From positions 23,190,001 to 23,254,000 of the forward strand of contig CM097885.1 of assembly GCA_044892525.1 (NCBI GenBank): a stretch of 64,000 nucleotides of DNA, written 5' to 3'. Each line of letters starts with the position of its first letter. Within the stretch, counting starts at the first letter, position 1. The stretch comes from Schmidtea polychroa. Lineage: Eukaryota. The position numbers and the translations under genes are program-made. Below, piece after piece: positions 6,160-64,000 of the stretch. The notes under the pieces were generated by a model. The model did no database searches. It was given only the letters and a program-made list of their open reading frames with translations, and was not told where the DNA came from.

Positions 6160-6220
6160 ACAATGGGTGCTAATCCTTCATTGCCCGACATTAAATTTAA
6201 TTTTAAATCTTCTTGTTGTA

Positions 6221-6594
6221 ATGGAGAAGATTTGGACGAACCCAGAAGACGAAGCCGGTTTCGGTGGAGTGGCAAAATTAAACAAAAGAGTTCCGAATTC
6301 GAAAAAAGAAACCCAGATCAGCTTGCGTACAGTTTGAACAAACGATGCGGAAAAGATTTCCAACAAGAGCGTATAAAACATTTGGTATTGACGATTTATG
6401 GCAAATGGATTTGATGGAGATGATACCTTATTCGAAAATTAACAATGGGAATAAATATACTTTAACATGTATTAATGTATACAGCAGGTTTGCACGAGCA
6501 ATACCAGTCAAGGCAAAATCTGCAGAAGAAATGTCCAAGGCAATTAATATTTTATTTAAAGATGGACATCCTAATAACTTGCAAACAGATTTAG

Positions 6595-6680
<86 letters not shown>

Positions 6681-7264
6681 TTAGGTAAAGAATTCACTAC
6701 TCGGTACATTCTCAATACAAAGCTGCCCATGTTGAAAGATTTAATCGAACATTGAGAGATAGATTAAAGAAATTGTTCGTGCATCAAGGTAATAAAAAAT
6801 GGGTAAATGCTTTACTGAAAATAATAACAAGTTATAATCATTCATCACATCGAGGACTGAATGGATTGAGACCGGTTGATATTACATCAAAAACACCATT
6901 ATCTAAAAAATCTGTAAAAATTGCAAAACCTAAATATAAAGTCGGTGACCATGTTAGAATTAGTAAAATTAGTGCATCACCATTTATTAAAAATTTTGAT
7001 ACAAATTGGAGTGATGAAGTCTTTGTAATTTCAAAAATAAATACTAAACAGAATCCTGTAATGTATGTCATCAATGACAATGATAATAATATTGTACAAG
7101 GGAAATTTTATGAGCAGGAATTACAAGTCATTCCTCCCCCAAAAGTATTTAGAATTCAAAAAATATTGAAAACTAAAAAGGTCGGTAAGGATAAACAATA
7201 CTATATCAAATGGCACGGTTATCAAAACCCGTCATGGATATCGTCAAAAGACCTAGTAAAATGA
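6221..7264 (+). pseudogene. Retroviral-type integrase with chromodomain; intron 6595-6684; small deletions/frameshifts
   Basis: WQMDLM, QTDLG/KEF, HVERFNRTLR, C-terminal YYIKWHGY...SWI. Confidence 0.92.
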
Positions 7265-8265: not shown

Positions 8266-8623
8266 TTCGGATATTATAAGTATGTATAGTGGTAGCCAAT
8301 CTGGCGGTGAATTAACATATTTTATTGGTAAACAGTACGGATCAGGATAATTGAGAACAATTGGTAGATTTTCACTTCCTATTCTTAAACGTATTGGTAG
8401 TTTTGGTATGAAAACTGCTAAAGATGTTATTATGAATGAACAGAAAATATTACCATCTCTAAAATCAAATGCTTTAGCAGAATTAGGGAAAGTTTTACCC
8501 GGGGTTGCAGGTATGTTTCAAAAACCAGCTCCAGTTCCAGCTCATGCTCCAAAACGTAAAAGACATGGAATATCACGTATAAACAAACGAATGAAAGGCC
8601 ATGGAACTATATTTGCAAAATGA
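8258..8623 (+). pseudogene. Core-like protein with QxGG/QYGSG motifs, premature TAA at 8348
   Basis: MANSDIISMYSGSQSGGELTYFIGKQYGSG*LRTIGRF; the copy at ~39150 has Trp at the stop position. Confidence 0.7.
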
Positions 8624-9842
8624 TTTGTGGTAAATCTGAATTATGTATATTTGATAGACCGTCGCCCCAGGCTGTAATAGAATTTGGGGCGTTTGAGGAA
8701 GTTTTTCCAATGAATTCAATTACTGATAGTAGAAATGATATAGAGTTTTATATTAATGGTTCGCAAAATGAATATTTAGATTTGAACGATACTTTATTGA
8801 CTGTTCAGATCAAGGTTATAGATAAAGATAAAAAAGCTTTGGGTGATGCTGCTGATGCAATACCGAACAATTTCATGTTTCATACTCTTTTTAAAGATGC
8901 TGTGTTGGGATTTAATAATATCAAGATTGAAGGTGGTAATAATACATTCAGTCACAAGGCTTTGATAGAAACTATTTTAAATTACAATTCCGATACTAAA
9001 AATACATATCTTACTCCAATGGGATATGCTGCAACCGACGATGAAAGAAAAAAGTGGATTAAAGGCTCAAAAACATTCACCATGTGTTCATCGTTACAAC
9101 TCGATTTTATGGATCAACCGAAATATTTGCTTCCAGGAGTTAATGTCCACATTCAATTGAAAAGATCCGATTCTGCACTAACTCTTACTAGTGCTACAGG
9201 TGCACCAATATGTCAATTAGTTGATGCAAAATTATTGGTGAGAAAAGTACGAGTAGACCCCTCAGTATTAGCAGGTCATCAATTGGGTCTTAATTCAAAA
9301 CATGCAATTTATCCATTAAAAACAAAGGAAATTGTACAATTTGCTATTGCTAAAGGTGCTTCATCAGTCTATAAAGAACAAATATTTGGTGACAGAAGAA
9401 TGCCTAATTTTATTCTGATAACATTTCAAAGTGAAGCACAATATAATGGATCATATACTGCGTCCAGCTCAATTTTCAAAAACTTTAATGTTACATCATT
9501 GACTTTGTCGAAAAATACTGATTATAGAGAAACATATATTCAAGATTTCGAGAATTACAATTTCTGTGCGACATATATGCAGAGCATTGTTAGAAATCTG
9601 GGTTATTTAGATAAAAATTTGAATTGTGGAATAACTCTAGAAGATTTTAAAAGCAAATACCCATTTTTACATTTGTTTTAGCCCCTGATTTTGATTTAAA
9701 TCAAAGTCAATTACCTCAAAATGGAAATTTACGACTGGATATAAAGTTTGCAAAAGCTATTACTGAACCAGTACATGTTATAATATATGGAGTATTTGAA
9801 AATGAAGTTCAAATTACTGCAAATAGAACAGTGTTGGTATAA
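8620..9842 (+). pseudogene. Major capsid protein (double jelly-roll), frameshift near 9667
   Basis: KSELCIF, YLDLNDT, DFMDQPKYLLPGV; the shifted tail GNLRLDIKFAK...ANRTVLV ends at 9842. Confidence 0.9.
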
Positions 9843-10241
9843 ATGTATATTGAAACACAAAAAGTTGTCATGGAGTAAGTTGTTCTTTTAAACTCTGGAT
9901 TTATTTAAGTAGTTCTGTTCAGGTCAATAAAATCGGAAAACAGATATTGGGAAATGAATTTGTTGGAGTTTTTCCTCTAAATAAAATTCCATATTTGAGC
10001 AATAATCAAGCAATAATCATCAATACGCAATCGTCTCATCTTGGTGGAGAACATTGGATAGCTATATATGTGAAACCTGGTAAAATATTAGTGTTCGATC
10101 CTATGGGTTTTTATTACCCGGCTTTGTTGATATCAAAACTACAAACAATGGGGTAATAAAACTATGTTTCAAAATCCCTTGACCCAAACATGCGGTCAAC
10201 ATTGTTTAGCTTGGTTATTGTACAAAAAATTTGATGTTTAA
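9843..10241 (+). pseudogene. Adenain-like cysteine protease, disrupted
   Basis: GEHWIA (His), VFDPMG (Asp), and QNPLTQTCGQHC (Gln/Cys) in another frame. Confidence 0.85.
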
Positions 10242-10340
10242 AGAAAAAATGTTTAATAAATTTGATGTTTAATAAATGTATCCTTTCCTTTGTTGTTGTG
10301 TTATTATTAATATTATTATTAATATCATTATTAATATTAA

Positions 10341-10377
<37 letters not shown>

Positions 10378-10403
10378 ATTAATATTATTATTATTATTAT
10401 TAA

Positions 10404-10446
<43 letters not shown>

Positions 10447-10789
10447 GTGAAAAATATTATTATTTTTTAATTAATTTTATTATTATTCTAATAAATATTA
10501 TTATTTGTAACATAAAGACTGCCTTTGCCTGAGGCATGCACAGTGCAAGTTAACAAAGGCATGACTAACAAAGGCAGTCACATGTAATTCTGAGTGATTT
10601 ACATTACATACATGCATGCGTGTGATTGGTTGAGTGATTAAAATATTCAGTGTATATGTGTGTGTCTATATTCTCATTGGCTGGGACAGGAAAATATTCA
10701 TTCTCTTTATAAACATCGACAAATCTAAAATTTGTCACAATTATTTTAAAATTTTGAAATTTCAAAATCAATTTGATTAATATTCTAAA

Positions 10790-12046
10790 ATGGAAAAGAA
10801 CGATAATAATCGAGCGTTGAGAGGTCTTTTGACTAATGGTAAATTATTATTATTTTTATTCTATTTTATTTAGATCCTTTCAACTGGTTCGCAGTTACCG
10901 AAGACGAATCAATGTTGAACGTGGATCGGATTTTCGGTAAATTTATCATTTTAATTTTTATTAAAATTAATTTTATATATATTTTAGAACCTATTATTAT
11001 TATTAGCGATGATGAAGATTTAATATTTATTGAAGAAATTAATGCCGAAGATGAATCGATTTTAAATATGGAAAATATCGGTAAATTTATCATTTTAATT
11101 TTTATAAATATTAATTTTATATATTTTAGAACCTATTATTATTAGCGATGATGAAGATTTAATATTTATTGAAGAAATTAATGCCCCAGTTAATGATGTT
11201 GGGCAAAACAAGGTTTTCAAAGAAAAAAGTAAATTTATTTTACTTTAGTATTTTATTTTTAAAAATTTTATTTTTTAGCGTTTAATTTTGATATTGATGC
11301 CGAGGAAGTGGATGAAATAAATGATTCAGATAATACCCTCACTTCTATTGAGGAGGTGGACGAAATGAATGCCCTCACTTCTATTGAGGAGGACTCTGAT
11401 TCCGATATGGAATCGAAATGTAAGACTTATTTATTTTTTATATATTTTTATATATTTCTTTAAAATTTTATAAGCACTTTTTAAATATTTTCATATTAAT
11501 TTCATTATTTTCTTAAAAACTTTTATAAATTACTTATGATGAATTTATGAAGAAAATGATTTATGAAGATAATGATTTATGAAAAAAATGATTTATGAAG
11601 AAAATGACGAAAATTATGAATTTATGTTGAAAATGAATTATGAAGAAAATGGTGAAAATTATGAATTTATGTTTGATGAAAATGATTTATGAGGAAAATT
11701 ATGTTGAAAATAATTATATGACGAATATATGATGAAAACGATTTATGAAGAAAATTATGTTGAAAATAATTATATGACAAATATATGAATTTATGATGAA
11801 AATGATTTATGAAGAAAATGACGAAAATATGACGAAAAATATGAATTTATGATTATATGACGAAAATTATGTTGAAAATAAATATGACGAAAATTATGAA
11901 TTTATGATGAAAATTATGAATTTATGAAGTAAATACTACGTTTCTGAAAATAATGAAATTAATATAAAAATATTTAAAAAAGTGATTACGAAACTATAGT
12001 TATAAAATAATTCTTGTAGTTTGCAATGTGCATCTACATTAGTTAA

Positions 12047-12094
<48 letters not shown>

Positions 12095-12169
12095 CTGACC
12101 CTTCTACTATAGTCTACAGTAAGCATGTAGCTATATAGTAGTCTGCAGTGAGCATGCAGCTACTTCTCT

Positions 12170-12243
<74 letters not shown>

Positions 12244-15200
12244 CTTACTCGTCTAATATTTAACATATTCATATAATAATAATCTGACCCATATACTAAA
12301 ATCTCTCTAATATTCTCTCGAATATATTAACCTATTTTCTATAAGGATTTATCATCATTTGTTATATAGTTCATTTGAATTAAATAACAAATGATGATAA
12401 ATCCTTATCGATGTAACAATTAATAACAATTAGAAAAAGAGAATAAAACTTTAATTTTATTATTTAACAGGTAGACTATACCCAAATTATTGTCAATCCT
12501 CAATTGGACATAACGATAAATGTCATCGCACCATGAAAAAGTATTACAGAAAGACGTTTAATTCAGTCAACTTTTTTATATGCCCCAAATGCGTGACTAG
12601 CGAAAAAATACAATATAGGGAATTTTTTAATAAACATCATAGTCACTTAGGGCAATTTTCGATTTCAAAAAATGTTTTATTTAAAAAAATAAATAAAAAT
12701 AAAAAAAAATTACAAAAAAATTTAGAAAAAAATATTATTAAAAAAAATATTAAAAAAGAAAAAACAGATACTATTAAAACAGATACTATTAAAAAAGATA
12801 CTATTATTATTAAAAAAGATTTAAAAAATATTAAAAAAAATATTATAAAAGAAAAAACAGATACTATTAAAACAGATACTATTAAAAAAGATACTATTAT
12901 TATTAAAAAAGATCCTATTATTATTAAAAAAGATTCTATTAAAAGACCTGCTGGTTTAATTAAAAATTATATTCCTAATAAATTATCGCGACCTGAAGTG
13001 ATAGTCATCAGCAAAGATGAATGTGTAGCTTCAACATCTTTCACACAACACGCACCCATTACACAACACGCACCCATTACACAACAAGAAGTGATAGTCA
13101 TCAATGATGAATGTGTAGCTTCAACGTCTTTCAACATATGTCAAATAGGCGGCTCTTTGTTTGAACCTATGGTTGAATCCGATTTGAACGGATCGCGAAA
13201 AACTTTAAAATTGGATATTAGAAATCAAAACTTGGTAAAAATAACCCTAACATCAAAAATTGAAGAAAGATTAATAGAGGAAATAGAAAAGATGGGCAAT
13301 GTAAAAATTCAATTTACAATTTTAATTAAATTTGAAAAAGATGGGGAGATCCGGGATAATTATTTTTCAAACAATGCGCAAGTTTTTTCAGCAAATTTTA
13401 TAAACGAGGGGGTGAGCAAATTAAATGAAAAGATTGAGCAATTCACCTATTTAGGAAGCGGGTGGCGCGTAATGAATATTTTAGAGATAGATTTTATTTT
13501 AACGAAATACGCACCCGTTAGTAGATTATCCGGACATAGCTATATAAAAACCCCATCAGCATTAAAATTAAAACATGCAATAATTAATGTAAAAAACAAC
13601 GACCATAAGTGTTTCTTATATAGCATTCTTGCACTTTTAAAAAGAGAAGAAATAGGTCGTAATCACCAAAGAGCCGCCAAATATATAGAATTTTTACCTC
13701 TATTAAATTATGATGAAAACACAGATTGCCCGATGAGGTTATGCAACATTCCCAAATTTGAAAGGAAAAATCGCGATTTAAACATGAGCATAAACGTTCT
13801 TTCGTATAATCCAGCCAGTTCTGATTGTGATATTTCTCAGGATTATGTAGCTCACCACCCTCATCTTAATATCATACATCGTTCCAAGGTTATAGATGGT
13901 AGGCCGATTTATTTATTACTTTTGAGTAATAAAGATAAATATCATTATACGGCAGTGACAGACTTGGACAAATTAATGAATTGTCATTTAAATGAAAATG
14001 TAAATGTTCAAATAAGGTGTAACTGGTGCCCACATTGTTTAAATGGCTTTAGATATAAGAATGCTTTCGATCAGCATGTTGCTCTATGCTGTAAAAATCA
14101 GACTGGCACAACCTTGTATACACTTCCTAAAAATAAGGATTTATTATTCACAGATTACGCAAAAACCGTTACACCTCCCTTCGTAATTTATGCCGATTTT
14201 GAATCGGTTTTACCAGAACATGAAACATATCATCAAATACATTTACCCATATCAGCAGGTCTTTTATTAATTAATAATTATACAAACACTAAATTTTATT
14301 ATTATTTTTTTGGACCTAATTGTATTTTGGATTTTTTGAGGAAAGTGGAGGAAATTGCTGTCACAATTGTCCTGCCATATTATGAACTCGAAGGTCATAA
14401 AGGTATGTCTACTTTGTCTTTTGCTCAGGAGCGTGCCTTTCGATCTACCACTATTTGTTATTTGTGTAAAAAAGCTATTATTAATCCTGTGAGAGATCAT
14501 TGCCATTTTACAGGTAGATATGTCGGAGCGGCATGTAGGAAATGTAATGTCTCTCGCAGGATTAATAAATTGTTACCTGTTGTCTTTCATAATTTACGAG
14601 GCTATGACCTCCACCATATTTTAAAACATGGTCTCAGTGATTTTCCCCTTTGGGAACTTAAAATTATACCTACCTCTACAGAAAAATTTATATCTTTAAT
14701 TGCATATATTAACAAATTGCCTGTTCGTTTTATTGACAGCATGCAATTTGTTAATTGCTCTTTAGCCAAAGCTGTGAAAACCTTAACTACTTTTCCGTTA
14801 ACTTCGTCTGTCTTTCAAGGGTCGATGATTCACTCTAAAGGTATCTTTCCATATAATTTCGCTACTTCTTTGGATGTTCTTGAATCGACTTTAGAATTAC
14901 CTCCTATTTGGTCTGATGTTACGGAAGATCAGTACGCTGAGGCTCAACTAATGTGGAGTCAGCATAACTGTAATAATTTGTTATATTATATGTTAATCTA
15001 CCTAAAATTGGACGTATACCTCCTCGCAGACTATTTTCAGCAATTCCGCGGTAAGGCAATTGCTTACAATGGTCTGGATCCTCTTAATTTCTACGGGATT
15101 CCCGGTATGTCATGGGCCTCAGCGCTTATGACATTAACGGAACCCATAGAACTTTTGCAGGACATGGAAATGTATAATTTCTATGAGGGAGGTATCCGGG

Positions 15201-15874
15201 GTGGGTTAACATTTGTTAACAAACATTACACGGCTACTTCAGATGATACAGAATTATTGTACATTGATATAAATAATCTGTATGGTTGGGCTCTTAGCCA
15301 AAATCTTCCGTATGGTGATTTTTCTTGGGTGAATAATAACTTAAATGATGTTTTACTTGAATGTATGAACACGGATATTGATAACCTTCCATATGGGTAT
15401 ACTATGGAGGTCGATATCGATATTCCGGAATGTATGCATGACTTTTTGAATGATTTTCCGATTGCGCCGGAAAAGTTGTGCCTGCCTAATTCAAAAGTTG
15501 AGAAGCTGATGCTCACGCATTGGCCAAAGAGGAACTATGTTCTTCATTGGAGGCTTCTCAAATTGTATATAGAATTAGGTGCGGTTGTTGTAAATATTCA
15601 TAGATGTATAAAGTTTAAACAAGGACCTATCTTTAAATCCTACATAGACACCAACACCACTTTACGATCTCAGTCTACTAGCGAGATATATAGGGACTTG
15701 TTTAAATTGTATAATAACAGTCTGTACGGTAAATCCGTTGAAAATCTGAAAAAACGAATGAATTTGAGGTTGTGTAATTCATCCGAAAAGATGATAGTAT
15801 ACTCCTCAAAGCCGACTTTCAGAAAGTCTATAAGAATCGATAACGATCTGATTGTATTTATATATACATATTGA
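10790..15874 (+). pseudogene. Protein-primed DNA polymerase B with five predicted 5' exons; C-terminally truncated
   Basis: Exons 10790-10838, 10874-10936, 10988-11080, 11130-11228, 11279-11419, 12471-15874; YADFES, FHNLRGYD, YIDINNLYG and KLYNNSLYGK present; DTDS motif absent. Confidence 0.9.
11530..11930 (+). repeat. Degenerate tandem repeat (GAAAATGATTTATGAA-like) in the large pPolB intron
   Basis: Visible reiteration of the unit. Confidence 0.8.
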
Positions 15875-16039
15875 ATAAAATTTGTAATCAGATTTTTTTT
15901 TTTAAATTTTTTAAGTATTTGTTGTTTTATTATAATTTTTATATTTAATGGTGATTTTTATATAGTCTGCAGTGAGCATGCAGCTATATCAGTATTTTTT
16001 TTATATAGTCTGCAGTGAGCATGCAGCTATATCAATCAC

Positions 16040-16088
<49 letters not shown>

Positions 16089-16103
16089 CTTTAAACAGTT
16101 TGC

Positions 16104-16134
<31 letters not shown>

Positions 16135-16147
16135 TAATAATAATAAT

Positions 16148-16214
<67 letters not shown>

Positions 16215-16363
16215 CTTTAAACAGCTTGCAAGGTTACTAGTCATGCTTATTATACATTTGATGGTTACAATTTCTACATTTTGAAAACTATATTTTGATT
16301 GGCTATCACAATTTTATAAATGTAAGAACAAAAGTAATTTAGTTATTAAGAAATTTATTACTA

Positions 16364-16998
16364 ATGATTTCTATAAATAAAACTGATGAATGTGTAACAC
16401 ATTTGGTAACTTTATTATTTTGTCAATATTTTTTTATATATACCATTTATAGCAAGGAAGTCCTACTAGAAATAAGGAAAAATTATGTCCAACCTATTCT
16501 GAAATTTCATTGAAATTTTTTAACACAGTTGAAGATTTTATAAATAATCATGATACTTACAGTGATAAGCAACTCATAAATATTTTAAAGATTTTCAAAC
16601 ATTCCTCTATTGAATATTTGTTTGATTTATTTAATTATGAGAAATCCATTTTAAAGTTATCTTGTTATTTAATGTACTTAGAAAAAATATCAGTAAACAA
16701 TGATTCACTGAATGAATACTTTTGGAGTTGTATGCATTTAAGGTTGAAACCTAGATATAGTAGATTGATTTATGATTGGATAGCAAAAACCGATTTGATT
16801 GAAAATAAGCTAACGAAAAAACTGAACGATGTTAAGAAAAGGTATTTGACTTGTTCAATTTGTAAAGAAAATCGAGTTTCGGTTTTGTATTTACCATGTG
16901 GTCATGTAATTGTTTGTTCTAAGTGTCACGAGAAGAATGTTCGCAAGTGTCAAGCCTGTTCAACACTGATTAATGAATATCATACTATATATATTTAG
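16364..16998 (+). CDS. IAP-type C3HC4 RING protein, two exons (intron 16406-16452)
   Basis: CSICKENRVSVLYLPCGHVIVCSKC...CQAC...IYI at the extreme C-terminus; the upstream ATG exon splices in frame. Confidence 0.85.
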
Positions 16999-17045
16999 TT
17001 TACCTTTGTTAATTTTACATTATTTTATTGTTTAAATAAATGTAT

Positions 17046-17199
17046 GTACATCAATATTTATTTACCTTTGTTAATTTTACATTATTTTATTGTTTAAATA
17101 AATGTATGTTTTGTTGATTTGTTGAGCGTGACCAGTACCCTTGTGAGCATTACCCATAGGGGGACAAAATATTTTGTCGGATAGACTCGGTGTATATAG

Positions 17200-17251
<52 letters not shown>

Positions 17252-17843
17252 TCTTTAGAAATAATAATCTTAATAACAAGATATATGGCTCATTCGAAAG
17301 GCCTTGGATTGAGCTTTAAAATGAGCTATCGATTATTAATGTTTGTTGACGGGAACTTTGAAAATAATTAAAAATAATATTTTTTAAAAATAATAATATG
17401 ACCTTGATGACTCATCGCGATGACTCATATGACCTTGAGAATGACCTTGGATGAGTCATAGGATGACTCAGATGACCTTGAAAATGACCTTGAAAATTTT
17501 TGATGAGTCATAGCATGAGTCATATGACCTTGAAAATTTTTTGATGAGTCATAGTATGAGTCATATGACCTTGAATGAGTCATATGACCTTGAGAACGAC
17601 CTTGAATGAGTCATGGTCTTTGTTTAAATGACCTTGAAAATTTTTATGACTCATCGGATGAGTCATATGACCTTGATGAGTCATAGTATGAGTCATATGA
17701 CCTTGAAAATGACCTTGTTGAGTCATATGTCTTTGTTTAAATTTACTTTTAGACTTAGAATATTTTTGAAAATCTTACCGACGGGGGGAGGGGGGGTACT
17801 GTGCTAGCGGTGCCCTGTGCCAGCGGTGCCCAATCCATCTACT
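17046..17843 (-). repeat. Right TIR of Polinton A
   Basis: Inverted copy of 460-1555. Confidence 0.93.
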
Positions 17844-40555: not shown

Positions 40556-43500
40556 CCCATTTCTTTGTATTGATGCTTGGTAATCAGAAATCTAGCTAAG
40601 AACGGTATGCAATCAATAATCAATTTCCATGACCAACCAGATATAACATATATTTGGTGGGTAGTTAGTATTTGAGATTATTACTTTCGTCATCACTATC
40701 ATAACATAAATTCCAATCAATCCTGCACACGCTTGTCCTAAAAACATAAATTTTCCCCATATCTTTTTCATCGTATTATACGTTGCCTTTTTATAATGAT
40801 CTGGTGTTAATAGATAGTCATAGTTTACTTTTCCTTCGCCTCCTGGTAGTAGTATCAATCATATCAGTTATTACTCGTTCCTTTTTCGACGGAAATAACA
40901 AATTCATTCTGGCTTCCTCAACATCTTCAGAATATAATCCGGTTTGTGCTAATTTATCCAATGATGTGAAATTTATTAAATACTCAAGTTTCGTTAATTC
41001 AAGCTTTTCTGGAGTTTTTACTCCCTTGTGATCTGATAATGATATCCATGAATCTGATGTTAATCGATATAATGGTGCGAGTAATCTGTTTCATTTTAAA
41101 GCCTTTGGTTTTACGTCTTCTTCTAACAATATCCGAGTTATTGGTTCCATAAATCTGAGTTTACCATTAACACTAACTGGTAATTCATTTGTGCATTGTT
41201 CGTATTTTATAATTTGTACTGAAATTTCATTGCATTTATAGTTATACAACGCTTCATCAAATATCCTTGCAAATACACCGTTTTCCGATATTAACATAGG
41301 TGCTACCAAATTCGGATTTTTGACCGCCATGGCCATTTTATTTCGTAATATTTCTTTGTTTAATTTACAATCGTTTAATATCATTTCTCGATAAATATTT
41401 TCCACAATGCTTTGACTGTAATGGAATAGATAATCTATTTTGTTATTGAAATAATTTGTCAATTTAATATCTGTACTATGTATTTTAATTTGAGCTTCCT
41501 CGACTCTTTTCTTGGACACATAAATTCTTTTATAATTCGTCTCATACACCGTTTGCCCACACTTATCCACTACTCGTTTTCGTATAAATCTCATTCCATC
41601 GTTCAATAAAGTTGACATCAGAACTACTGGAGTTTTTCTCTTTCTCAATTGCGAAATTTTAACTGTCATATCCGACTTTGCTTCTACGTTCAAACTTTCC
41701 GGTCTATCTCTCAACTGTTCGCCACTCATTTCATTGAAACTCATTGATTTCAAATGAATCAAATTACATAAATTTGTCTTTACTTCATATACCAAAATCG
41801 ATTCTGCTGTCTGACAACTGGTCTGTTTCATATTACATAATGGATGAGTTTGTAGTTTACCTGTATCATCGTTAAAAGCTCCTTTAAATTCTCTCAATTC
41901 TGTTAAATATTCTTCCATCACAACAACTCTATCAATAATTTGACCATTCATTTTATATGGTTCGCCTTCACAATCATCATTGGCCTTTATCGTCCCCTTT
42001 CCGATAATCGTTTCTCGTATTGCATGATTCAATTTAGCCTTCAATTTAATTTCGGGGCTTATTTTCAGTTCTCCGGTCTGGAATGCAGCCATGTAATTTT
42101 CTGGGTTTACATCAACTGGCCTCGGTATTGCATACATTTTAATTAATGATGTGTGACTCCATTTGCCAGAATAAAAGATAAAACTTGTTCTTTTCACAAT
42201 ACATTCTCTTACCGTGGCATGTCTGAATCCAAACTCTTGGTATACATAATATTTTACGTCATTTTCCACTATCAAACTCAGTGGATGTACATCTAGACAT
42301 TCTGTAATGTCTACCATAGAAAATATCTTTCCCATTTTTGTTTGAGAAAAGTCGTATGCGATCAGAGACGTCGTTTGAGTTGTAATTGCACATAATATTA
42401 TAATCATGAACATTAAGAATGGAAATTTAATGGTTTTTCGTTTCAAGGCTCCTTTAAGGTTTTCTCTCATTTCGACAGCTGGTTTCATTTTTTGTTTAAT
42501 CAGCTTTTCCCAACCTCCATTTTCTTTAATCCATTTGCCAACATACTTATGTAAAACTCTACTTGCCGTTTTAATTATTTCCCCTGGTTTTTCCATATCT
42601 GAGCAATCATATGTGCCGATCTCTAACAAAATATAACTCATAATTGTTAATACCATATCTTTATCCATTTCTCCTGTCATCATCTCAGTTATCACACTAT
42701 CATCGCAAAATTCCATACTTTCTTTTACTTGTTTCAACACTACACAAAATCTCTTTTCAATTTTCTTTGCGATTTTTCTTACATATTTCTCTACTTGTAA
42801 TTTCTCTGTTGATACACCATATAATTCATTTACTAGAGCACGTACAACTTTCTCAGTTTCCTTTGAGTTTTTCTGATTTCTTTCTTCTTGAAATCTTTGT
42901 ATTATTTTACATCTCATTTCATACAAATTTCTACATTGTTTTTCTTTAATTTCATTGTCTATCGTCATTTCTGTCATATATGGCTCATTTTTAAATTCAG
43001 TTTTTATCTCATTTTTAACAATAATCTCCTCAGCTTCATTTTCTATTTCATCTTTTTCAGTCTTCATCTCATTATTAACAATAATCTCTTCAGTTTTATA
43101 TTCTATTAAATTTCTTCGCATTTCTTGTTCATCGTGCATCTCATCATCATTACTCATTATCGCAGTTTTCCAATTTGTTAATTCCATTTTAAAGCTTCCT
43201 TCTACTTCCTTTAATTCAAATTGTTTCATCGCAACTAATTCATTAATAAACAATTCCTGATTCGTCAAAGATCCATTTTCATCAAATTTTCGTGGTACGC
43301 AGCCACAATCAAATAAATACTCATCATCGTCTAACTAAAAACCTTTATACGTATATACAATTATTCCATTTCTGCTGCTCTCCGTCGTATTTTACTCACT
43401 TTCCTACAACAATGCTCTTTGGTACATTTCACTTCTTGATCATTTATTTTTAAAATTATTATGAATGGCTCAATATGAACTCCTTTTTCTCTAAATTCTT

Positions 43501-50143: not shown

Positions 50144-53100
50144 TTAAACATTAATATTATTATATAGTATAATTTTATATAATATTATAAATTTTATGTA
50201 TTCTAAATTTAATAATACTTCATTTAATTTTTTAAATTCAAAAATTTATAAAGAACATTCTTTGAATTAAAAAATATTCTGTTAGTATTTCCATGCAGAA
50301 AACAACGAATTCAATAATTAAAAACTTAATTTTCATGTTATATATTTTGGGTTGTAGCCAGAAGTTAATCGTCATCTAATCGTTTGTTCAGTTATCACCC
50401 TGTTCTAATTTCGCTCATTTTTGTTCAAAACATTCAGGTGAGTTGTTATCTGGAAAGTTTCAGTTTCTTTTAGCTCAGTTTTGTTAAAAAACTCACGGCT
50501 TTTTTGAGGGACGTGACACTGGAAATCCATACATGTTGTTGGTCTGAGCTGTCGATTTACTTTAGAAATATGTATATTAAAAACATTTTAGGTATCATTC
50601 AGTAAAATAATATAGTATTTTTGAGTATTTTTTAGTTAATTTATAAATAACAGTATTTTGATGTATCAATAAAGACCATATAGTCTGATTTTATCCGACA
50701 AGATATTCTGTCCCTTTATGGGTAATGGTCACCAAGGTACTGGTCGCATTCAACATGTCGCAAGGGTATATTAATTATTAATCAGTTAGAAATTCTTAGG
50801 TAATTTAGTGAGATGATCAGAAATTCGTGAATATTTTAAATGTAACTTACCGAATTCTTATTTATTGCGAGCGACTTGTTTATTGGTTAACGTTTAAGAC
50901 ATTTAAAGCCAAATGTAATTTATTCTTCTAATGTTCGTTACTATAGTTAATAATATGAGAAAAACATGGTCATTGATAATTTTAAGTTCTTTATCATTTG
51001 GAGTAAATTTGTTTGAGGCAAAAATAATTAAAGGAGTCAGTCATAATATGTTTATCAATTTACCAATTAAGGTGCTTATTAGTTAGAAATATATACCAAA
51101 AAGTAACAATTCTTTCCTAATTTAATGAGATGATTATTGGACGTAATATATCTTTGTGACAAATACATAGGTTAAGATGTTTGAGTAACCAAAACATGGA
51201 TATTTTGTGCGATAAATTTATGAATATTGGTTAATCTTGTCATTTTTAGTCATTTAAAATAATATTTAGCAAAGGTAATTTAGCAAAATATCATTGAAAG
51301 ATTTATCCACCCGATAACAATATTCCTTCAATAGATTTTACCCTTAACTGATATTCAACCGATTTAATTTCTGGAAATATAATTAAAATCATAAATTAAC
51401 TTCAATAAAGTTAAATTTTCTTTAGTTGTTGTCGATGTCCAACTCTTTTAAGTCCTCATAATGAATGTCCATCTTTACCATGTTAAATAAAGATAAAATA
51501 ATTTAAAGCAATAACCTTTGATATCAATCGCAATTATCTCTAAAGATTTCAAATATTTCATTGTCAAAACCAAGTAAATTAGTCATTAACCCTAAACCAT
51601 TTAATAAAATCCTGGATAATTAATAGACTATTTCCATTGAAACATTTCCATCCTAACCGATCCTTCACCAAATATTTCTACCCCTTAAACATCCAACCGG
51701 TTATTTCCCCCTTAAATACTATATATTACCAACTTAACCGAACCCTCACTATATCCAACCGACTATATCTCTTAATTTCACCCACTTGAGCCCTTTAATA
51801 TATCTTAAAATCTATAGAAAATTCTTCAAAATATGAATTTTATTTAATTGTTACAAACATTTTTCCATTGAAATTGAAGCTAAATTCATGATCAAAAAAA
51901 TGATCAAAATTCATTAAAATCAATATTTTCTACAAATATTTAACCACATGTATCATCAAATACCTAACTAGAGATGATAATATCTCATTGATTGATCATA
52001 ATTCTTCATCGATTCAGCAAATTTTAGCAATTATAACATGATATATCTTTCAAACTAAATCACAAATTTCAGTATATTTTACAATAATTTTCAAGTAGAT
52101 TTCAAATATATGATCATCATGATAAAATTAACTGGTTTCAACTTTAGATTTTCAATATTTTAAAGTTCATCAATGTGTAAATATTCTTAGAAAATATATG
52201 AAAAAATTATTTAGTCAAATTCAATATCATTACAAAGTCATCATCATCATCAAAATTTATCCTATCACTTGATTATTGTAAAAAACTCTAATTATTAACC
52301 TTGTAATGTACAGTTATTTTTGTTAATATTTTAGTATTCACAATTAGGAATTGTGTATACTAAGATATAAAATACAACCATCTGGGAAATCCAGATTTTT
52401 AATAAAAAACTATATAGCGATAATTTACTATAGTAAATTATCGCTATAGTAAATTAAAAAATTAAAAAAAGTCAATAAAGAAATCAAATAAAATTTAGAA
52501 CAAACAGGAACTAAGACAAGAATAAGAAAACAAATTTAGAAGAAATTGGAAAGAATATTATTAAACCAATTCCTTTAAAACGGAAAAAAGAATATTAGAA
52601 GACTAGAACAAAACAAGGATCAGAGTAGTGAGGAATCTATGCACCCCAGCACCCCCACCCTCAAAAAAAAACAGCGCTATTGACCCATATTTTCCACATT
52701 TATATGCTTTTTTACCCCATATTCTTCACTTTTTTTAACTTTTAAACTTTGTCCCCTATTGCCATTAACCCTTAATTTCTTCCCTTAAAAGTAAAAAAGT
52801 TCGGAATAGATGTATTTATAGATTAGTAATTCCGAGAAAAGGTAACGGGGTGCATAGATTCCTCACTACTTGGTCTTAAGGATTTAATGTTATAAGAATA
52901 TCAGATTACCTAATTCATAATGATCTAGGTCGCCTGATCACCTTAAGGTTTTGAAAGTTTTAAAAATAAAAAATTTTATGAAAATAGTAAAACTGCTCTG
53001 AGGGGACAGTGGTATTTTTTTTTTTTTTTTTTCACTGTCCCCTCAACAGTTTTTTCTGATCCGGATCATTTTTTTTTTTTATTTATCAACCTCTTTCGTT

Positions 53101-53543
53101 TATCAAATCTCTTCCAATATACAAACTGGCCAGACTCATACATCAGAATCAATCCGATAATAGCAGCACGCCTTATTATTCGCTTCTCGCTCACGAAGTC
53201 GATTTCAACGGCGTTTTAAGCGTGCTGCTCGAAAGTACAAATGAATTCGAAAGCGAATCCGAAAGAGGTCCGAAAACAACTGAGAAATAAATGTGCACAT
53301 TACCGGGATCGATCCGGGGGTGTTCGAAAGACAGGTGGCGATAATTACCGGTTCGCCACCATCACCCGTTTCAATATTTTTTTTTTCATATTTATGTTTA
53401 AAAAATAATTAATTAATAAAAAAATAAAATAAAATAAAATAAATAAAATAAAATATACAAGTACTTTATAAATATAAGATACCCACACTATTTTCAATAT
53501 TATTTTCAAATTTTTAATATTATTTTATGTTGAAAAAAAAACT

Positions 53544-53617
53544 AACCTCAGATGTGATTTGAACCGCTATCCATTTGAACCACTGTGCCAGTCTATTCCC
53601 ACTGCGCCATCAAGGTT
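53544..53617 (-). ncRNA. Putative Pol III small RNA 1
   Basis: A-box TGGCGCAGTGG, B-boxes GGTTCAAAT, terminal stem AACCTT/GAGGTT, T9 run downstream. Confidence 0.6.
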
Positions 53618-53863
53618 TGAATTTTTGTCATTTTTTAGACTATAAATAATCGATTCAAGTTCTTTAACTCTTTCCTGTAATTGTTTCATTTTCTTCAATC
53701 TTATATCAGCAACATCTACAGCCTTCATATAAAAATGTCGATACTTTTCATTATCTACCATCAACTCTTTGATGTATTCTAATGGTTCTTCTTCTCTTCT
53801 TTTCATTCTCTTATGTTTAACTTCATTCAATTCATTTCTCATTCTTTCTTTTAACTCATCCAT
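53567..53863 (-). CDS. Charged coiled-coil hypothetical protein
   Basis: 98-aa ORF with AAAAATG start context. Confidence 0.6.
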   Translation of the reverse strand: MDELKERMRNELNEVKHKRMKRREEEPLEYIKELMVDNEKYRHFYMKAVDVADIRLKKMKQLQERVKELESIIYSLKNDKNSNLDGAVGIDWHSGSNG

Positions 53864-54033
53864 TTTTATAAATATTTTTTTATTGGATATATTAATTTTT
53901 GGTAGCTTAAGTTAAAACGTTTTTGATCTTAAATTTCCAAGAGTTGCCGTTGACCAATCACCTTAAAAATTTGTAAAAGTACTAAATCGAGTATGCTGAT
54001 CAATATTTTGTTTAAAAAAAAATTTGAAAAAAA

Positions 54034-54109
54034 ATTGACCGAAATGGGATTTGAACCCATTGGTATTGGCAATGCAGTCGAGTGCTATTACCACTAAGCT
54101 ATACTCAAT
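54034..54109 (-). ncRNA. Putative Pol III small RNA 2, tRNA-Cys-like
   Basis: A-box TAGCTTAGTGG, GACTGCA, perfect T-arm ATGGG-TTCAAAT-CCCAT, oligo-T terminator; anticodon stem broken. Confidence 0.7.
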
Positions 54110-54269
54110 ATAAAATAAGTTGTTAATGTGTGACTATTTATTGATGAAATTAATAATTAATTATTCATTTTCTCGACAACTACCACTCAGATCGATCTGA
54201 AAATTTAAATATATACTAAAATCAGTACGCTGAATCAGATTCCGTTGAAAAAAAATATCGAAAAAAATT

Positions 54270-54343
54270 GACCAAAATCGAAAATTGAACCCGGTACTCC
54301 CGGTGATAAAATTGAAGCCTATTCCCACTCCGCTATAATGGCT
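54270..54343 (-). ncRNA. Putative Pol III small RNA 3
   Basis: A-box TAGCGGAGTGG, B-box GGTTCAATT, same GGTCAA-oligo-T end as RNA 2. Confidence 0.55.
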
Positions 54344-54398
54344 TTCATAATATATTTAATTAATCCTATTGTGTGTGTGTAAATTTTAATATATAAAA

Positions 54399-55691
54399 AT
54401 GAATAACATAAATCTTAAAATTCAAGAAAAAAATAAATTAAATCTTGATTATAATAAAGAATTTACTCATGAAATCAAGAAAAACGATGTACTTAAAATC
54501 TCCCCAACTTCAGGATCTATTGCAAACTTAAATCGTAGGGGTGATATAGTTTTTCAATCTCTTCAAACATCAAACCCTATAGATATTTGTAATGCCAAAT
54601 TATATTATAAAATCGAATTAGAAATTGAAGCAAACAAAGATATAACCCTAGAAAATAATTTCTTTCCAAATTTATTCTCCAACATGAGATTAAAACTAGG
54701 ATCATCAGAAATTGAAACTGTTTTGCATCCGGGAGTATATTCTACAATGTTAAATTTTATTTTGACTGGTTGTGATTATAAAAACGAATATGGTGAATTA
54801 ACAGGTTGGATTCCTGATGTTAATAAAGGGGATTTAGATAAAGATGGTTTAGATGTAAACCATGGTTACCATAAAAGAGCTGAACTTTATAAATCTAAAA
54901 AATTTGAAGGTTATTTTGAATTAAAACACTTGTTTGGATTCCTTCAAAACTATAATCGTATACTTCATAATGTTTTTATAGAATTCATCTGTAATAGAGT
55001 AGAAGGTGATAAAAGATTGTTCTATGGAGCTGTAGATACAAAAGCTAAATTAAAATTATCAACACTTGAATTACATATACCTGAATGGACATTAAACCCA
55101 CATTCTGAGATTAAACTCCTTGAAAGATTAAATTCCAACAAGTCTATAAATGTAAATTATTTAAATAGAATCTGTAGTGAATTTAGTATGACAGAGGGTT
55201 CAACATATTCTATAAAGGTAGCAAATTTAGCATACCGACCAAGATATATCTTGATTGGATTCAAAGAAACAGATTCATCTTTCCAAAAAAATAACAATCT
55301 ATTTATTCAAAAGATTGGAGATGATAATTTAAAAACAATACAAATTCAATTAAATAGTTCTTATTATCCAATAAATAGAATGGAATTTAATATTGAAAAT
55401 AATGAAAACATATTCCCATATCTAAATTATATTGAAACATGTTATGATTTCAAAGTTGAACCGCAATTAAGTTTAGAAGATTTCAAAAATTTATATTCTA
55501 TATTTTGTATAAATGTATCAGACCAAGATGATCGATTAGCCATAAATAATGTTGATGTTACACTTCATGTAACAAAGGATTCTAATTTTAAAGCTAAAGT
55601 ATATACATTAATATTAGAAGAAAAGAAAATAGAAATGAAATTATATGGTGGAAAGATTTCAATAATCGAAAATGTTAAGGGAGATTCTTAA
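54399..55691 (+). CDS. Major capsid protein (double jelly-roll)
   Basis: LENNFFPNLFS..LKLG..EIE..PG, PRYILIGF, IQLNSSYYP. Confidence 0.85.
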   Translation: MNNINLKIQEKNKLNLDYNKEFTHEIKKNDVLKISPTSGSIANLNRRGDIVFQSLQTSNPIDICNAKLYYKIELEIEANKDITLENNFFPNLFSNMRLKLGSSEIETVLHPGVYSTMLNFILTGCDYKNEYGELTGWIPDVNKGDLDKDGLDVNHGYHKRAELYKSKKFEGYFELKHLFGFLQNYNRILHNVFIEFICNRVEGDKRLFYGAVDTKAKLKLSTLELHIPEWTLNPHSEIKLLERLNSNKSINVNYLNRICSEFSMTEGSTYSIKVANLAYRPRYILIGFKETDSSFQKNNNLFIQKIGDDNLKTIQIQLNSSYYPINRMEFNIENNENIFPYLNYIETCYDFKVEPQLSLEDFKNLYSIFCINVSDQDDRLAINNVDVTLHVTKDSNFKAKVYTLILEEKKIEMKLYGGKISIIENVKGDS

Positions 55692-55708: not shown

Positions 55709-57118
55709 ATGTCTTTAAATAAATATTGGATATGTGAAACTTGTAATTGTCAAGTTACAAGACATCATAAAGCAAGCCATCTTAAAACTAAAAAACATAC
55801 AGTAGGTGACCTAATTCCACGAGCTGGAGGCGATTTGCAATCTTCAAAAACAACATCTTCAATATTAAAACCTTTTACTACAGAAAAATATCCAGGTGAA
55901 AGACATTTATTTAAACACAACTATACTGGACCAGGAACACGTCTAGATATTAGATTAGATGAAAATAATAATCCCAAACAAGGAGAAGAACCAATAAATA
56001 GAATTGATCAAGCAGCTTTAAAACATGACATTGCATACAATTCAACAAATCTTAGAGATAGACATGTTGCAGATGTGAATTTAATACATGATTTAAATAG
56101 TATCCAAAATCCATCAACCCAAGAAAAGATTCAAAGAGCTCTAGTTAAATTAGCAATGAAAGGTAAGATTTTCATAGGCTTAGGACACAGTCCGATCACC
56201 ATGGGTGCAAGACTTCCTAGGAAAGCAAAAGATGTTGCTTATAAAAAGATTATCGAACAAGCAGAGATTGAAAGATCCCTCGAGAGTACAGCCAAGACTA
56301 GTCTACAAACCCCAACAGAATCAGAAATAAAATATGCAAAGGAATTACACCATGAATTTAGAAAAAATAAAAAATATTTAAAAGTTCAAGTACATGAAAA
56401 AGATCAAACATGGTCTGCAGATTTAGTCTTTATGCCCAAATCATCAGACCCTGAAAAATATAAAATAATTTTAACTGTAATAGATTTATATACAAGATTT
56501 GCTTTTGCAAGATGTTTAGAAAATAAAACAGGATATTCTATTACAGAAGCATTTGAAAATATATTTGAAGATAATCAAAGAATCCCAAAATATTTATGGT
56601 GTGATAAAGGAACAGAATTTTATAACAAAGTTTTTACAAAGTTTTTAAATGAAAATGATATTAAATTATATTCAACAGAAAACGAAGGAAAAGCAGTCGT
56701 AGTTGAAAGATTAAATAGAACATTAAAAAATAAAATGTGGAAATATTTTACTGCTATTGGAAAACAAAAATGGAACAATGAATTGTTACAAAAGATTGTA
56801 AATGAATATAATAATGATGTACATAGTTCTATAAAATCAACACCTTTAAATGCTTCCATGAAGCCTGAAACCATTAAAGTGGTAAATATTGAAAATGATG
56901 TTATTGAAAAACCAAAGTTTAAAATTGGTGACCGAGTAAGAATATTTAAATATAAAAATAAATTTGAAAAAGGATTCACAGCAAAATGGACAAATGAAAT
57001 TTTTATTATAAATAAAATACATTATACAACTCCAATAACATATAGCATCTTTGATTTAAATAATGAAAAAATATTAGGTAGATTTTATAATAATGAACTA
57101 CAGAAAACAGATTTTTAA
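55709..57118 (+). CDS. C2H2 zinc finger + parvovirus-type PLA2 + retroviral-type integrase fusion
   Basis: CETC..HLKTKKH; HNYTGPG...IDQAALKHDIAY; SADL, CDKGTEF, VERLNRTLK. Confidence 0.92.
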   Translation: MSLNKYWICETCNCQVTRHHKASHLKTKKHTVGDLIPRAGGDLQSSKTTSSILKPFTTEKYPGERHLFKHNYTGPGTRLDIRLDENNNPKQGEEPINRIDQAALKHDIAYNSTNLRDRHVADVNLIHDLNSIQNPSTQEKIQRALVKLAMKGKIFIGLGHSPITMGARLPRKAKDVAYKKIIEQAEIERSLESTAKTSLQTPTESEIKYAKELHHEFRKNKKYLKVQVHEKDQTWSADLVFMPKSSDPEKYKIILTVIDLYTRFAFARCLENKTGYSITEAFENIFEDNQRIPKYLWCDKGTEFYNKVFTKFLNENDIKLYSTENEGKAVVVERLNRTLKNKMWKYFTAIGKQKWNNELLQKIVNEYNNDVHSSIKSTPLNASMKPETIKVVNIENDVIEKPKFKIGDRVRIFKYKNKFEKGFTAKWTNEIFIINKIHYTTPITYSIFDLNNEKILGRFYNNELQKTDF

Positions 57119-59432: not shown

Positions 59433-59897
59433 ATGACTCCTTCAATATTAGATTTTTTAAAAACATTTGGAATAAATGCAAAAACAAATTTTGATTTAAA
59501 AGATTATGCAAATTATTTAAATTTAAAAATTAAAATATTAATGAATGATGAATTATCAAGTCTGGAGAGTCCCCTGAATATAATAATCAATTATCAAAAT
59601 TCAAATGAAAAAGGATCTCATTGGGTTTGTATATATAAGAAATCTATCTACTTTGATTCTTTTGGGATTAAACCTACTAAAGAAGTTGAAGATTATCTCT
59701 TGAGGGGTTCTCCGATTGATTCCCCAAATGGTTATACTTTTAACTCTTTACAAGTTCAACCTTTGAATACTAAAATATGTGGTATTTTAAGTTTATATGT
59801 TTTGTATAGATTGAATAAGGGAGAGGGAAAGGGGCATACGCAGGATTTTGAATCTATAATTCAAGAAATTTATAATGATCTAGAATCTCTACTATAA
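59433..59897 (+). CDS. Adenain-like cysteine protease
   Basis: GSHWV, YFDSFG, QVQ...ICG. Confidence 0.9.
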   Translation: MTPSILDFLKTFGINAKTNFDLKDYANYLNLKIKILMNDELSSLESPLNIIINYQNSNEKGSHWVCIYKKSIYFDSFGIKPTKEVEDYLLRGSPIDSPNGYTFNSLQVQPLNTKICGILSLYVLYRLNKGEGKGHTQDFESIIQEIYNDLESLL

Positions 59898-62444: not shown

Positions 62445-62999
62445 TCAGTTATGGTTGAAAGCCAACCTATGAATCATTAATTTATGATCTTTAAATTCTT
62501 TATCACTTAGACCTTTTATATATTCAGGATCAGTATTAAAATATTTAAGTTCTAAACATATAGGATTAAAAACTTGAGAATATAAAGGTTTCTCGATTTC
62601 TCTCTCGGGATAAATAATTTCAACATTATAAATATCAAGATCAGTAATCTTTGTATCATATAACTTATTCAACTTTTCTAGATTTTTTATTATAGGGATT
62701 AAATTATTTCCAATAGGTAGAGTTGTCTTTAAATCACTTAGTATGAATCTCTTATCATCATAATTTGATAATGATATTTTTTGAGATTCTATCAAGTGAA
62801 TATCATGGTTTTCACTTTTAAGTTGATGTATTTCATCAATTTTATCTTTATGATTTGGATTCAATGTATCTATATAATCTTGATGAGAAAGATTCTTTGC
62901 AACCACTCTCTGTATTCCTTTACATCTGTTATCCATTAAATTAGTAATATTTTTTATAATTTCAAAAATGTTATTTTCTTGATTTTTAGTTTCCATCAT
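62445..62999 (-). CDS. Stand-alone paralogue of the pPolB C-terminal region
   Basis: KGIQ...NYDDKRFILSDLKTTLPIGN.LIPIIKNL...LKYFNTDPEYI also present in ORF 63024-63905. Confidence 0.8.
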   Translation of the reverse strand: MMETKNQENNIFEIIKNITNLMDNRCKGIQRVVAKNLSHQDYIDTLNPNHKDKIDEIHQLKSENHDIHLIESQKISLSNYDDKRFILSDLKTTLPIGNNLIPIIKNLEKLNKLYDTKITDLDIYNVEIIYPEREIEKPLYSQVFNPICLELKYFNTDPEYIKGLSDKEFKDHKLMIHRLAFNHN

Positions 63000-63023
63000 T
63001 TTATAGTGTTAAAATTCTAATTC

Positions 63024-64000
63024 TTAGACCAGTCGTAATTGATTTATAATTATTTCTGCAGTAATGCTTTTTAACATTAATTTATGTGATTTAAAGTCTT
63101 CTGGTGTTAGTCCTTGGATATATTCAGGATCAGTATTAAAATATTTAAGTTCTATAGGTTTTATATTTTGAACTTGGTTATATAAAGGTTTAGGAATTAA
63201 TATTTCAGGATATTGGATTTCTACTTTAGCAAGTTGAAGGTCTGTAATCTCTAGGTTATAAATTTCATTTATTTTATCAAGATTTTTTATTATAGGGATT
63301 AAATCATTTCCAATAGGTAATGTTGTCTTCAAGTCAGAAAGTATAAATCTTTTATCATCATAATTTGTTATAGCAATCTTGTTACACTCTTCAAGATATA
63401 TATTATGTTTCTCTGATTTAAGATGATGGGTTTTAGCAATTTTATTTTTATAATTTATATTTAATGAATCTTTATACTCTTGATGTGTGAAGGTTTTTGA
63501 CACTGATTTTTGAATTCCTTTACTTTTATTTTCTTTATAGCTTTTCGGGTTTTCAGGGAATGAAGGATATTCAAATGTGTGATCTATTTCAACAGATCCT
63601 TCTCCCTCCCCTATTATAAATTTTATTGTATGCTCTTTCATAATTGGTTTGTCTTTCATTTCAAGAGAATATTGTTTAGGTCTAATAAACACTCCTCCAC
63701 TTATTGGAGTATTTGGTTTTTCATCTTTAAAAGTAAATAATTCTCCAGAGTTGTTTATTAATTTATTTAAGGTTTCGTTTTCACTTATTTCCTTTTTTAA
63801 ATCTTTACTATGACCTTTTAAAAACATACTATCAGTGTCCATAGCATGCATGGATATTCGATCTCCAAAATGGGGTACTAGAACATCATAGTAGGCTTCA
63901 TACATTTGAAGCTTTGAAAGTTCTAAAATTGAAAACCCTATAAAGATTGGTTTATTATAAGTTTTTACAGAGTTTTTAATCTCTAGGGCTATAAGGTTAC
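63024..64000 (-). CDS. Protein-primed DNA polymerase B, C-terminal part
   Basis: KPIFIGFSILELSK, MDTDS, FKDE, RPKQYS, KGI, DDKR. Confidence 0.93.
   Translation of the reverse strand, partial: NLIALEIKNSVKTYNKPIFIGFSILELSKLQMYEAYYDVLVPHFGDRISMHAMDTDSMFLKGHSKDLKKEISENETLNKLINNSGELFTFKDEKPNTPISGGVFIRPKQYSLEMKDKPIMKEHTIKFIIGEGEGSVEIDHTFEYPSFPENPKSYKENKSKGIQKSVSKTFTHQEYKDSLNINYKNKIAKTHHLKSEKHNIYLEECNKIAITNYDDKRFILSDLKTTLPIGNDLIPIIKNLDKINEIYNLEITDLQLAKVEIQYPEILIPKPLYNQVQNIKPIELKYFNTDPEYIQGLTPEDFKSHKLMLKSITAEIIINQLRLV

Follow-up and report, generated by a model that had tools for sequence, protein, structure and literature searches.

Candidate Pol III modules of tRNA descent in a planarian Polinton and their relationship to the host rDNA spacer

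Polintons are considered relatives of adenoviruses, and a 64,000-nt stretch of the Schmidtea polychroa genome (hereafter the window) raises the question of whether one of them carries Pol III genes comparable to the adenoviral VA RNAs. The initial annotation had described there a cluster of three tRNA-sized Pol III units within a Polinton, and the placement inside a true Polinton was borne out. The element is complete and spans 15,187 bp from window position 52624 to G000:C1:23257810, as delimited by its terminal inverted repeats (TIRs) and target duplication. The TIRs with a 6-bp target-site duplication are those of Polinton/Maverick elements of the adintovirus type, and the gene content agrees with this assignment. 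In addition to the DJR capsid protein, Pfam searches identified the protein-primed pPolB (PF03175, E = 9e-13), an rve integrase (PF00665, E = 9e-12) and the A32 packaging ATPase (PF04665, E = 1e-8) of a Polinton. The integrase and a PLA2-like domain lie within one 469-aa ORF (window 55709–57118). An ORF at 59433–59897, without a Pfam match, bears some resemblance by eye to an adenain protease. The features of the unit region are collected in Table 1.

Table 1. Coordinates of the Polinton features discussed (window positions unless given otherwise)
Feature	Position	Strand	Remarks
Target-site duplication	52618–52623 and after the right TIR		GATCAG, 6 bp; flanks the Polinton on both sides
Left TIR	52624–52984	+	About 360 bp; 91.5% identical to the right TIR (G000:C1:23257443–23257810)
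Unit 0	52989–53370	-	A-box at 53358; B-box one base closer than in units 1–3
Unit 1	53533–53616	-	Internally duplicated B-box segment; T9 run
98-aa ORF	53567–53863	-	No Pfam family; runs into unit 1 in the subfamily studied
489-bp block with units 2 and 3	53899–54387		Matches a host rDNA intergenic spacer module at 97–99% identity
Unit 2	54027–54108	-	tRNA-Cys(GCA)-like; T-arm intact, anticodon stem lost; T8 run
Unit 3	54261–54342	-	75 nt to the T7 run; three internal T4 runs; A-box 64 nt from the capsid ATG
Major capsid protein, DJR	54399–55691	+	PF21738, E = 1e-26; head-to-head with the unit cassette

The host genome is AT-rich, with 781 Mb and four large contigs, and a capsid search of it returned 3,252 candidates; the 98 that were scored were 99–100% identical with open frames. 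The family is very abundant, with thousands of copies. A capsid query of 74% identity returned only the same Polinton family from the genome and thus offered no intermediate family. IMG/VR scans found no relative of the capsid, and the 36 metagenome loci with a capsid of 19–52% identity (92 kb in all; most are short and lack the ends of the element, so that this says little) contained no A/B unit with a T-run. The 98-aa ORF, whose 3' end is overlapped by unit 1, stops before unit 1 in other subfamilies, at 73–75 aa, and its comparison with another subfamily gave 5 synonymous and 10–12 non-synonymous codon differences. The first 24 bp of the terminal repeat (52624–52647) recur inverted about 225 bp inside each TIR (52848–52871), and a similar layout was seen in another Polinton family (locus L104). 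Six loci (L038, L042, L105, L106, L107 and L108) have the capsid and the unit 0/unit 1 arm in common and differ in their terminal repeats, which suggests TIR exchange among subfamilies. Clustered copies without the left TIR, in which the match begins at a poly-T stretch near window 53006, were found at G000:C1:264579299–264868246 and C4:92326263–92370962 and are possibly tandem arrays of the Polinton.

Elsewhere in the window, a second, apparently decayed Polinton-like element occupies about 600–17750, with an A32 ATPase at 5015 and a 1113-aa ORF at 12533; its inverted arms contain TGACTCAT-rich repeats, and no strict A/B unit lies inside it. On the minus strand, a 184-aa ORF at 62445–63905 duplicates the PolB C-terminal region (300 nt at about 75% nucleotide identity), and a 712-aa ORF at 41091–43229, perhaps a retroelement envelope, has a Monjiviricetes-type fusion glycoprotein domain (PF24664).

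The three units were confirmed at the places claimed for them, co-oriented on the minus strand, upstream of and opposite to the capsid ORF. A strict scan of the 64-kb window for an A-box, a B-box and a T-run was passed by these three loci only; 200 local shuffles gave a mean of 0.015 matches and a maximum of 1. The A-box T lies at 54335 in unit 3, 54101 in unit 2 and 53609 in unit 1, the GGTTCAA B-box follows 44 nt on in each (with unit 3 off the consensus at the last B-box C), and the T-run starts at +75 or +76 when numbered from the tRNA +1. The units have the anatomy of type-2 Pol III genes, namely an A box, a B box at tRNA-like spacing and oligo-T. A motif built from them had 4,398 exact matches genome-wide as against none for the reversed control. 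They align without gaps at 39–41 of 74 positions; the box positions were identical at 14 of 14, compared with 14 of 60 elsewhere, a contrast that is ascertained as the units were recognised by their boxes. The middles, described at the outset as diverged, are identical at only 6–11 of 27 positions.

The structure of these units was found to be poor. The short terminal pairing that had been noted stood in part: some pairs can form (6/7 in unit 1, 5/7 in unit 3, and 5/7 in unit 2 only in a shifted register), but the pairing is weak and not kept between subfamilies, the first 7 nt of unit 2 being replaced in ten or more copies and the ends of unit 1 differing between subfamilies. The anticodon stem retains 1/5, 0/5 and 2/5 pairs in units 1, 2 and 3, respectively, and the T-stem of unit 2 has 5/5. 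Folding z-scores were -0.7, -2.8 and +0.1 in the same order, units 1 and 3 folding no better than shuffles, and unit 3 contains an internal T4 run at +32. Antisense complementarity of the short units to genes of the element reached 11–13 nt at best, none of it beyond chance. With weak folds and stems that are not conserved, the proposal that the short units are VA-RNA analogues was not sustained.

ARAGORN found no tRNA gene in units 1–3; with lowered thresholds it made 178 calls in the window, which were judged to be noise. Only unit 2 comes near the cut-off of the Rfam tRNA model (26.7 bits, cut-off 29). It aligned best to host tRNA-Cys(GCA), with a z of 9.1 compared with at most 6.0 for Lys and Arg, and as these three were the only host isotypes compared, the Cys assignment is limited to unit 2. 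This is the unit in which tRNA-Cys features without an anticodon stem had been recognised, correctly. Units 1–3 are tRNA-derived, and none has a cloverleaf. Host tRNA-Cys(GCA) itself forms tandem arrays with 1,012 motif matches (G000:C1:269250646 onward, about 281 bp), and the gene examined has only T4 runs downstream. Host tRNA-Lys is likewise arrayed (C4:76658343 onward, about 424 bp), and the 7SL genes form a long tandem array from C2:31932512 onward with a period of about 593 bp.

Heads of tRNA origin and thousands of motif matches could also mean that the units are insertions of a dispersed tRNA-derived SINE. This reading is largely refuted and now has very little left to commend it: no tails or target-site duplications were seen, the units end in T-runs, and all 8 lone-looking or diverged matches that were sampled share more than 200 bp of flank with a Polinton arm or the rDNA spacer.

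The presence of the units in sister elements was established on 27 distinct copies picked by the capsid alone, of which 26 have unit 1, 23 unit 2 and 24 unit 3; another 29 copies, picked by the unit region itself, all have the three units, as expected from the selection. Another five loci, of 16 wanted, were selected because their upstream frames differ. Three of them (L105, L106 and L108) are full block-less copies that have unit 1, with its A-box about 0.1–0.4 kb from the capsid start, and lack units 2 and 3; unit 1 is shortened in one of the five. L104, from the other family, has no unit in the 1.2 kb before its capsid. Furthermore, L039 is an otherwise similar copy without units 1–3, L038 and L042 are block-less inside the derived clade described below, and block-less or unit-less copies with intact capsid frames exist.

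Among the copies, the units were not more conserved than their flanks. In the unbiased test, 1 of 16 shared changes fell in the boxes compared with 3.0 expected (P = 0.17, not significant). An earlier count of 0 of 51 was set aside as biased, 3 of its 6 copies having been found by the box pattern. In three divergent copies found by capsid, which are not independent, the boxes of unit 1 showed no change among 7, 8 and 11 differences. Unit 1 is tandemly duplicated in L108 and L114, and positions 1–74 of unit 2 had no shared substitution among the aligned copies.

The origin of units 2 and 3 became apparent from the host rDNA. The block containing them matched the intergenic spacer at 99.4% over 171 nt, and at 97.8–98.4% over 370 nt to the closest family copies; the spacer homology ends at both 53899 and 54387, with non-Polinton DNA on both sides. 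The spacer examined lies on contig C202 between the 5.8S genes at 39025 and 51988; the analysis covered 5.2 kb, all but about 0.9 kb of it. Four A/B units stand there at a spacing of 237–244 bp, antisense to the rRNA, in the order of a further type, unit 3, unit 2 and unit 2, the last being tandemly duplicated. Sequence of unit 1, of unit 0, of the ORF and of the capsid was absent from these 5.2 kb. The spacer-side junction had 692 matches in the genome (control, 0), and junctions lie about 5.4–5.6 kb from the listed 5.8S genes on contigs C21, C97, C115, C202 and C218. The array itself (L118:1–815 with L119; G000:C202:45880–46815) comprises three unit types, one of them unseen in the Polinton studied, and may act in the rDNA as a Pol III barrier or as an array of promoters.

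A tree of the unit 0–unit 1 region (30 rows chosen from fetched loci, 655 columns, midpoint-rooted, 4 of 27 branches strong) placed four block-less rows at the most basal positions; the 24 rows with the block, every one of them, fell into a single clade (100/99) that also takes in two rows without it. Unit 1 is present in the basal lineages. L106 showed an empty site at both ends of the homology, with a short AAAATT common at the left junction. In a diverged satellite the block and its spacer flank are contiguous at 88%, so the spacer junction is older than the 1–3% spread of the Polinton copies. From this pattern, units 2 and 3 very probably came into a single Polinton lineage not long ago, on a 489-bp piece of the spacer, capture from the spacer being the simplest reading for the block; unit 1 belongs to the same pseudo-tRNA family and has resided in Polintons for longer. 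Of the earlier view that these are non-coding RNAs from a captured tRNA, the tRNA ancestry and the promoter anatomy stand, but units 2 and 3 very probably did not evolve in the Polinton, being near-identical to an rDNA-spacer module and absent from the basal lineages.

The direction of transfer is a question separate from that of mechanism. The array could instead have originated in Polintons, concerted evolution having multiplied a fragment that landed in an rDNA spacer. It has been argued that spacers are assembled from the remains of transposons (PMC10319768), unit 1 is old in Polintons, and L110 carries a diverged unit 2 (85–88%) in a Polinton-derived context, so that older exchanges took place, in one direction or the other. 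We consider this reverse course quite improbable for the present block, its deeper origin being a separate matter: the spacer has one more paralogue, in step with the others but beyond the block, its 5.2 kb yielded no Polinton sequence apart from the block, and the empty site fits both homology ends while the basal lineages are without the block. L110 and L111 (G000:C1:13078700–13082900) hold units 1, 0 and 2 at 80–88% along with another, shortened unit of A/B-like type, oppositely oriented at a distance of 3.4 kb, and may be a palindromic non-autonomous derivative.

The strict scan agreed with a cluster of three, but a fourth A/B unit, outside the annotated coordinates, had been missed. This unit 0 was found by a relaxed A/B scan and is co-oriented with units 1–3; with a null of 1.8 per window for that scan, the motif by itself carries little weight. 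The boxes are followed by about 385 nt with long hairpins, two A-runs and a 3' hairpin that ends in T4 and has an A-run of variable length as its loop. A possible early T4 stop at 53276 would give a product of about 95 nt; the host tRNA-Cys gene examined also has only T4 runs behind it. The 385 nt fold at -134 kcal/mol, with a z of -8.4 on the minus strand compared with -4.9 on the plus strand, and in 12 of 12 other copies tested the minus strand folds better. Two pairs switch between G-C and A-U across subfamilies. The one in the 3' hairpin is G-C in 34, A-U in 16 and G-U in 3 copies; the other reads A-C on the minus strand in 23 of 56 copies, where the plus strand would have G-U. A plus-strand reading was rejected for its weaker fold, although this last variant points the other way, and the minus strand is favoured.

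Covariation in unit 0 was modest, with 17 of 37 changes keeping the pairing against 34% expected (P = 0.09); among the shared changes it was 7 of 11 (P = 0.04), a subset chosen after looking. The variable B-box position of unit 0 is the degenerate one. Unit 0 was full-length in three of the four basal lineages, and 283 nt of it was seen in the fourth. A 7SL/Alu origin was considered and rejected on alignment to a host 7SL copy (z of 0.6 for the whole and -1.1 for the 5' 80 nt). An Rfam scan of all but the last 14 nt gave no match, nor did a hammerhead or other ribozyme, considered by eye, receive one. With its fold, its persistence in the basal lineages and the contigs of four probable RNA runs that cover parts of it, unit 0 is a better VA/TMER-like candidate than the short units and the cassette member most likely to make a functional RNA.

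Transcription was approached through assembled contigs of four runs from two studies, whose RNA status was guessed and which carry no strand, ends or level, placed on 52950–55050. Contigs of all four probable RNA runs cover parts of 53043–53361 in unit 0 and parts of the capsid, and those of three runs cover unit 1. Depth figures were much larger over unit 0; genes cannot, however, be ranked by contig depth, and oligo-dT capture may have been helped by the A-runs. None of the four runs covered the unit-2 bin, and cover of unit 3 was slight, which is no argument against transcription because non-polyadenylated RNAs of 75 nt are lost from such data. An 18-T, poly(A)-like loose end at 53523, 10 nt past the T-run of unit 1, suggests a polyadenylated minus-strand RNA ending there, and therefore the cover of unit 1 need not be a Pol III product. 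Three runs include contigs that bridge the block, with 488 and 754 nt skipped, which shows that block-less forms exist.

In tDNA and TFIIIC-bound chromatin barriers, the A and B boxes are conserved independently of the RNA product, and we know of no such barrier in Polintons or in an animal rDNA spacer. The boxes of the short units are likewise kept without regard to RNA, and a barrier role may be considered here by analogy. Units 0–3 would form a candidate Pol III cassette just inside the left TIR, head-to-head with the capsid gene. From the observed anatomy, homology, spacer identity, lineage distribution and folding potential, we infer that Pol III may use the units and that the Polinton may benefit. 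TFIIIC would bind the A and B boxes and load TFIIIB and Pol III, giving transcripts of about 75 nt with little fixed structure that end at the T-run. The short units would then act by occupancy of the DNA and not by their RNA, keeping chromatin open or setting up a barrier of tDNA type next to the capsid promoter and upstream of unit 0. The hosts belong to a group in which piRNA silencing of Polintons is reported, planarian Polintons being described as piRNA/SMEDWI-2 targets (PMC8532177). This working model of TFIIIC/Pol III loading with DNA occupancy by the short units is put somewhat short of even odds. The combined best reading, to which we assign a probability of roughly 0.5, joins this model to the spacer capture described above, with units 1–3 as tRNA-derived type-2 Pol III promoter–terminator modules, or pseudo-tRNA genes, of one family that is also arrayed in the rDNA spacer. 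Box conservation in units 2 and 3 may have been inherited from the spacer, and the fixed 75-nt length could reflect a constraint at the level of RNA, both of which would count against it.

The units could also be neutral passengers, units 2 and 3 having hitch-hiked with the spacer fragment and unit 1 being an older relic of like kind; the lineage would have expanded for other reasons, and the boxes would look kept only through selection in the rDNA spacer. The recency of the capture (97–99% identity), the lack of a significant deficit of shared box changes and the copies that do without block or units while keeping intact capsid frames are all in keeping with this. Unit 3 may moreover stop early at its T4, in view of the host tRNA-Cys gene with only T4 runs. 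We hold it possible though doubtful, as unit 1 keeps both boxes in three divergent copies and is duplicated in two loci, and all four units are co-oriented. That the short units make functional RNAs of about 75 nt, which decoy RNAi/piRNA factors in the manner of VA RNA or give rise to tRNA fragments or miRNAs, appears to us less probable still. The constant length and A–B spacing, the ability of unit 2 to refold together with its lack of shared substitutions, the contigs over unit 1 and the viral precedent (PMC7589676 and PMC7773990) would all agree with it. It is opposed by the absence of a long duplex, of a conserved terminal stem and of notable complementarity to element genes, and by the shuffle-like folding of units 1 and 3. 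The cover of unit 1 is explicable by polyadenylated read-through or a transcript of the ORF, and units 2 and 3 are already in about 690 host spacers, so that extra copies add little new RNA. With boxes and length kept and stems not, occupancy or hitch-hiking fits better than a VA-like RNA.

A broader possibility, in our estimate rather unlikely, is that animal Polintons have a Pol III RNA programme of their own, VA/TMER-like, in which an abundant unit-0 RNA of about 385 nt would offer hairpins as decoys or feed for Dicer/Argonaute and an A-rich 3' loop that could bind poly(A)-binding protein; short units harvested more than once from the rDNA-spacer array would keep the arm open against piRNA silencing. 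If true, such a programme would help to account for the spread to thousands of copies. With an intact family of high copy number in an animal open to experiment, the alternatives of RNA decoys and Pol III chromatin barriers against silencing would become testable. The spacer source would be a documented case of Pol III modules passing from the rDNA spacer to a DNA virus-like element, and points to an antisense pseudo-tRNA array in what appear to be most host rDNA repeats; the value of the locus rests mostly on this source and on unit 0. In the open literature (subscription papers, Repbase reports and supplements lie outside it), we came across no account of non-coding Pol III genes in Polintons of animals, in line with the novelty suggested by the initial annotation, no pseudo-tRNA array in a planarian rDNA spacer and no paper pairing a Polinton with VA RNA; the ncRNA tables of PMC12220804 could bear on the first point.

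Several known systems share features with the cassette. Like the tRNA genes of polinton-like viruses, virophages and MELD viruses, the units are tRNA-related Pol III genes in small Polintons or their relatives, but those genes are predicted intact and proposed for codon compensation (PMC12220804 and PMC8502044), whereas the short units cannot fold as tRNA. Cassandra and Ajax TRIMs carry 5S promoters (PMC10946416) and are likewise mobile elements with an rDNA-linked Pol III promoter; here, in contrast, the carrier is a DNA virus-like element, the boxes are of tRNA type and the large rDNA unit's spacer is the source. VA RNAs are box A/B transcripts of about 160 nt with an apical stem as well as a central domain and the terminal stem, and the cassette resembles VA RNA I/II in its intragenic A and B boxes, T-run, presumed tRNA origin and position beside a virion gene (PMC7589676), its carrier being, like adenovirus, a capsid-encoding element with a protein-primed polymerase. 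It differs, on a comparison made from sequence alone, in short units of about 75 nt without conserved stems, a unit 0 of about 385 nt and different folds, and Rfam scans to E 5–10 found no VA match for units 0–3. TMERs have tRNA-like heads with one or two miRNA hairpins (PMC7773990). As in those of MHV68, several Pol III-type units are co-oriented, and in unit 0 hairpins and two possible stops come after a promoter head of tRNA type. Units 1–3 are unlike them in reaching the T-run at once, with no downstream miRNA hairpins and no cloverleaf. In unit 0 the TMER layout is present, including an imperfect hairpin of about 24 bp, but the head does not fold as a tRNA. Units 0–3 are not members of the VA or TMER family; by analogy, unit 0 may work like one of them.
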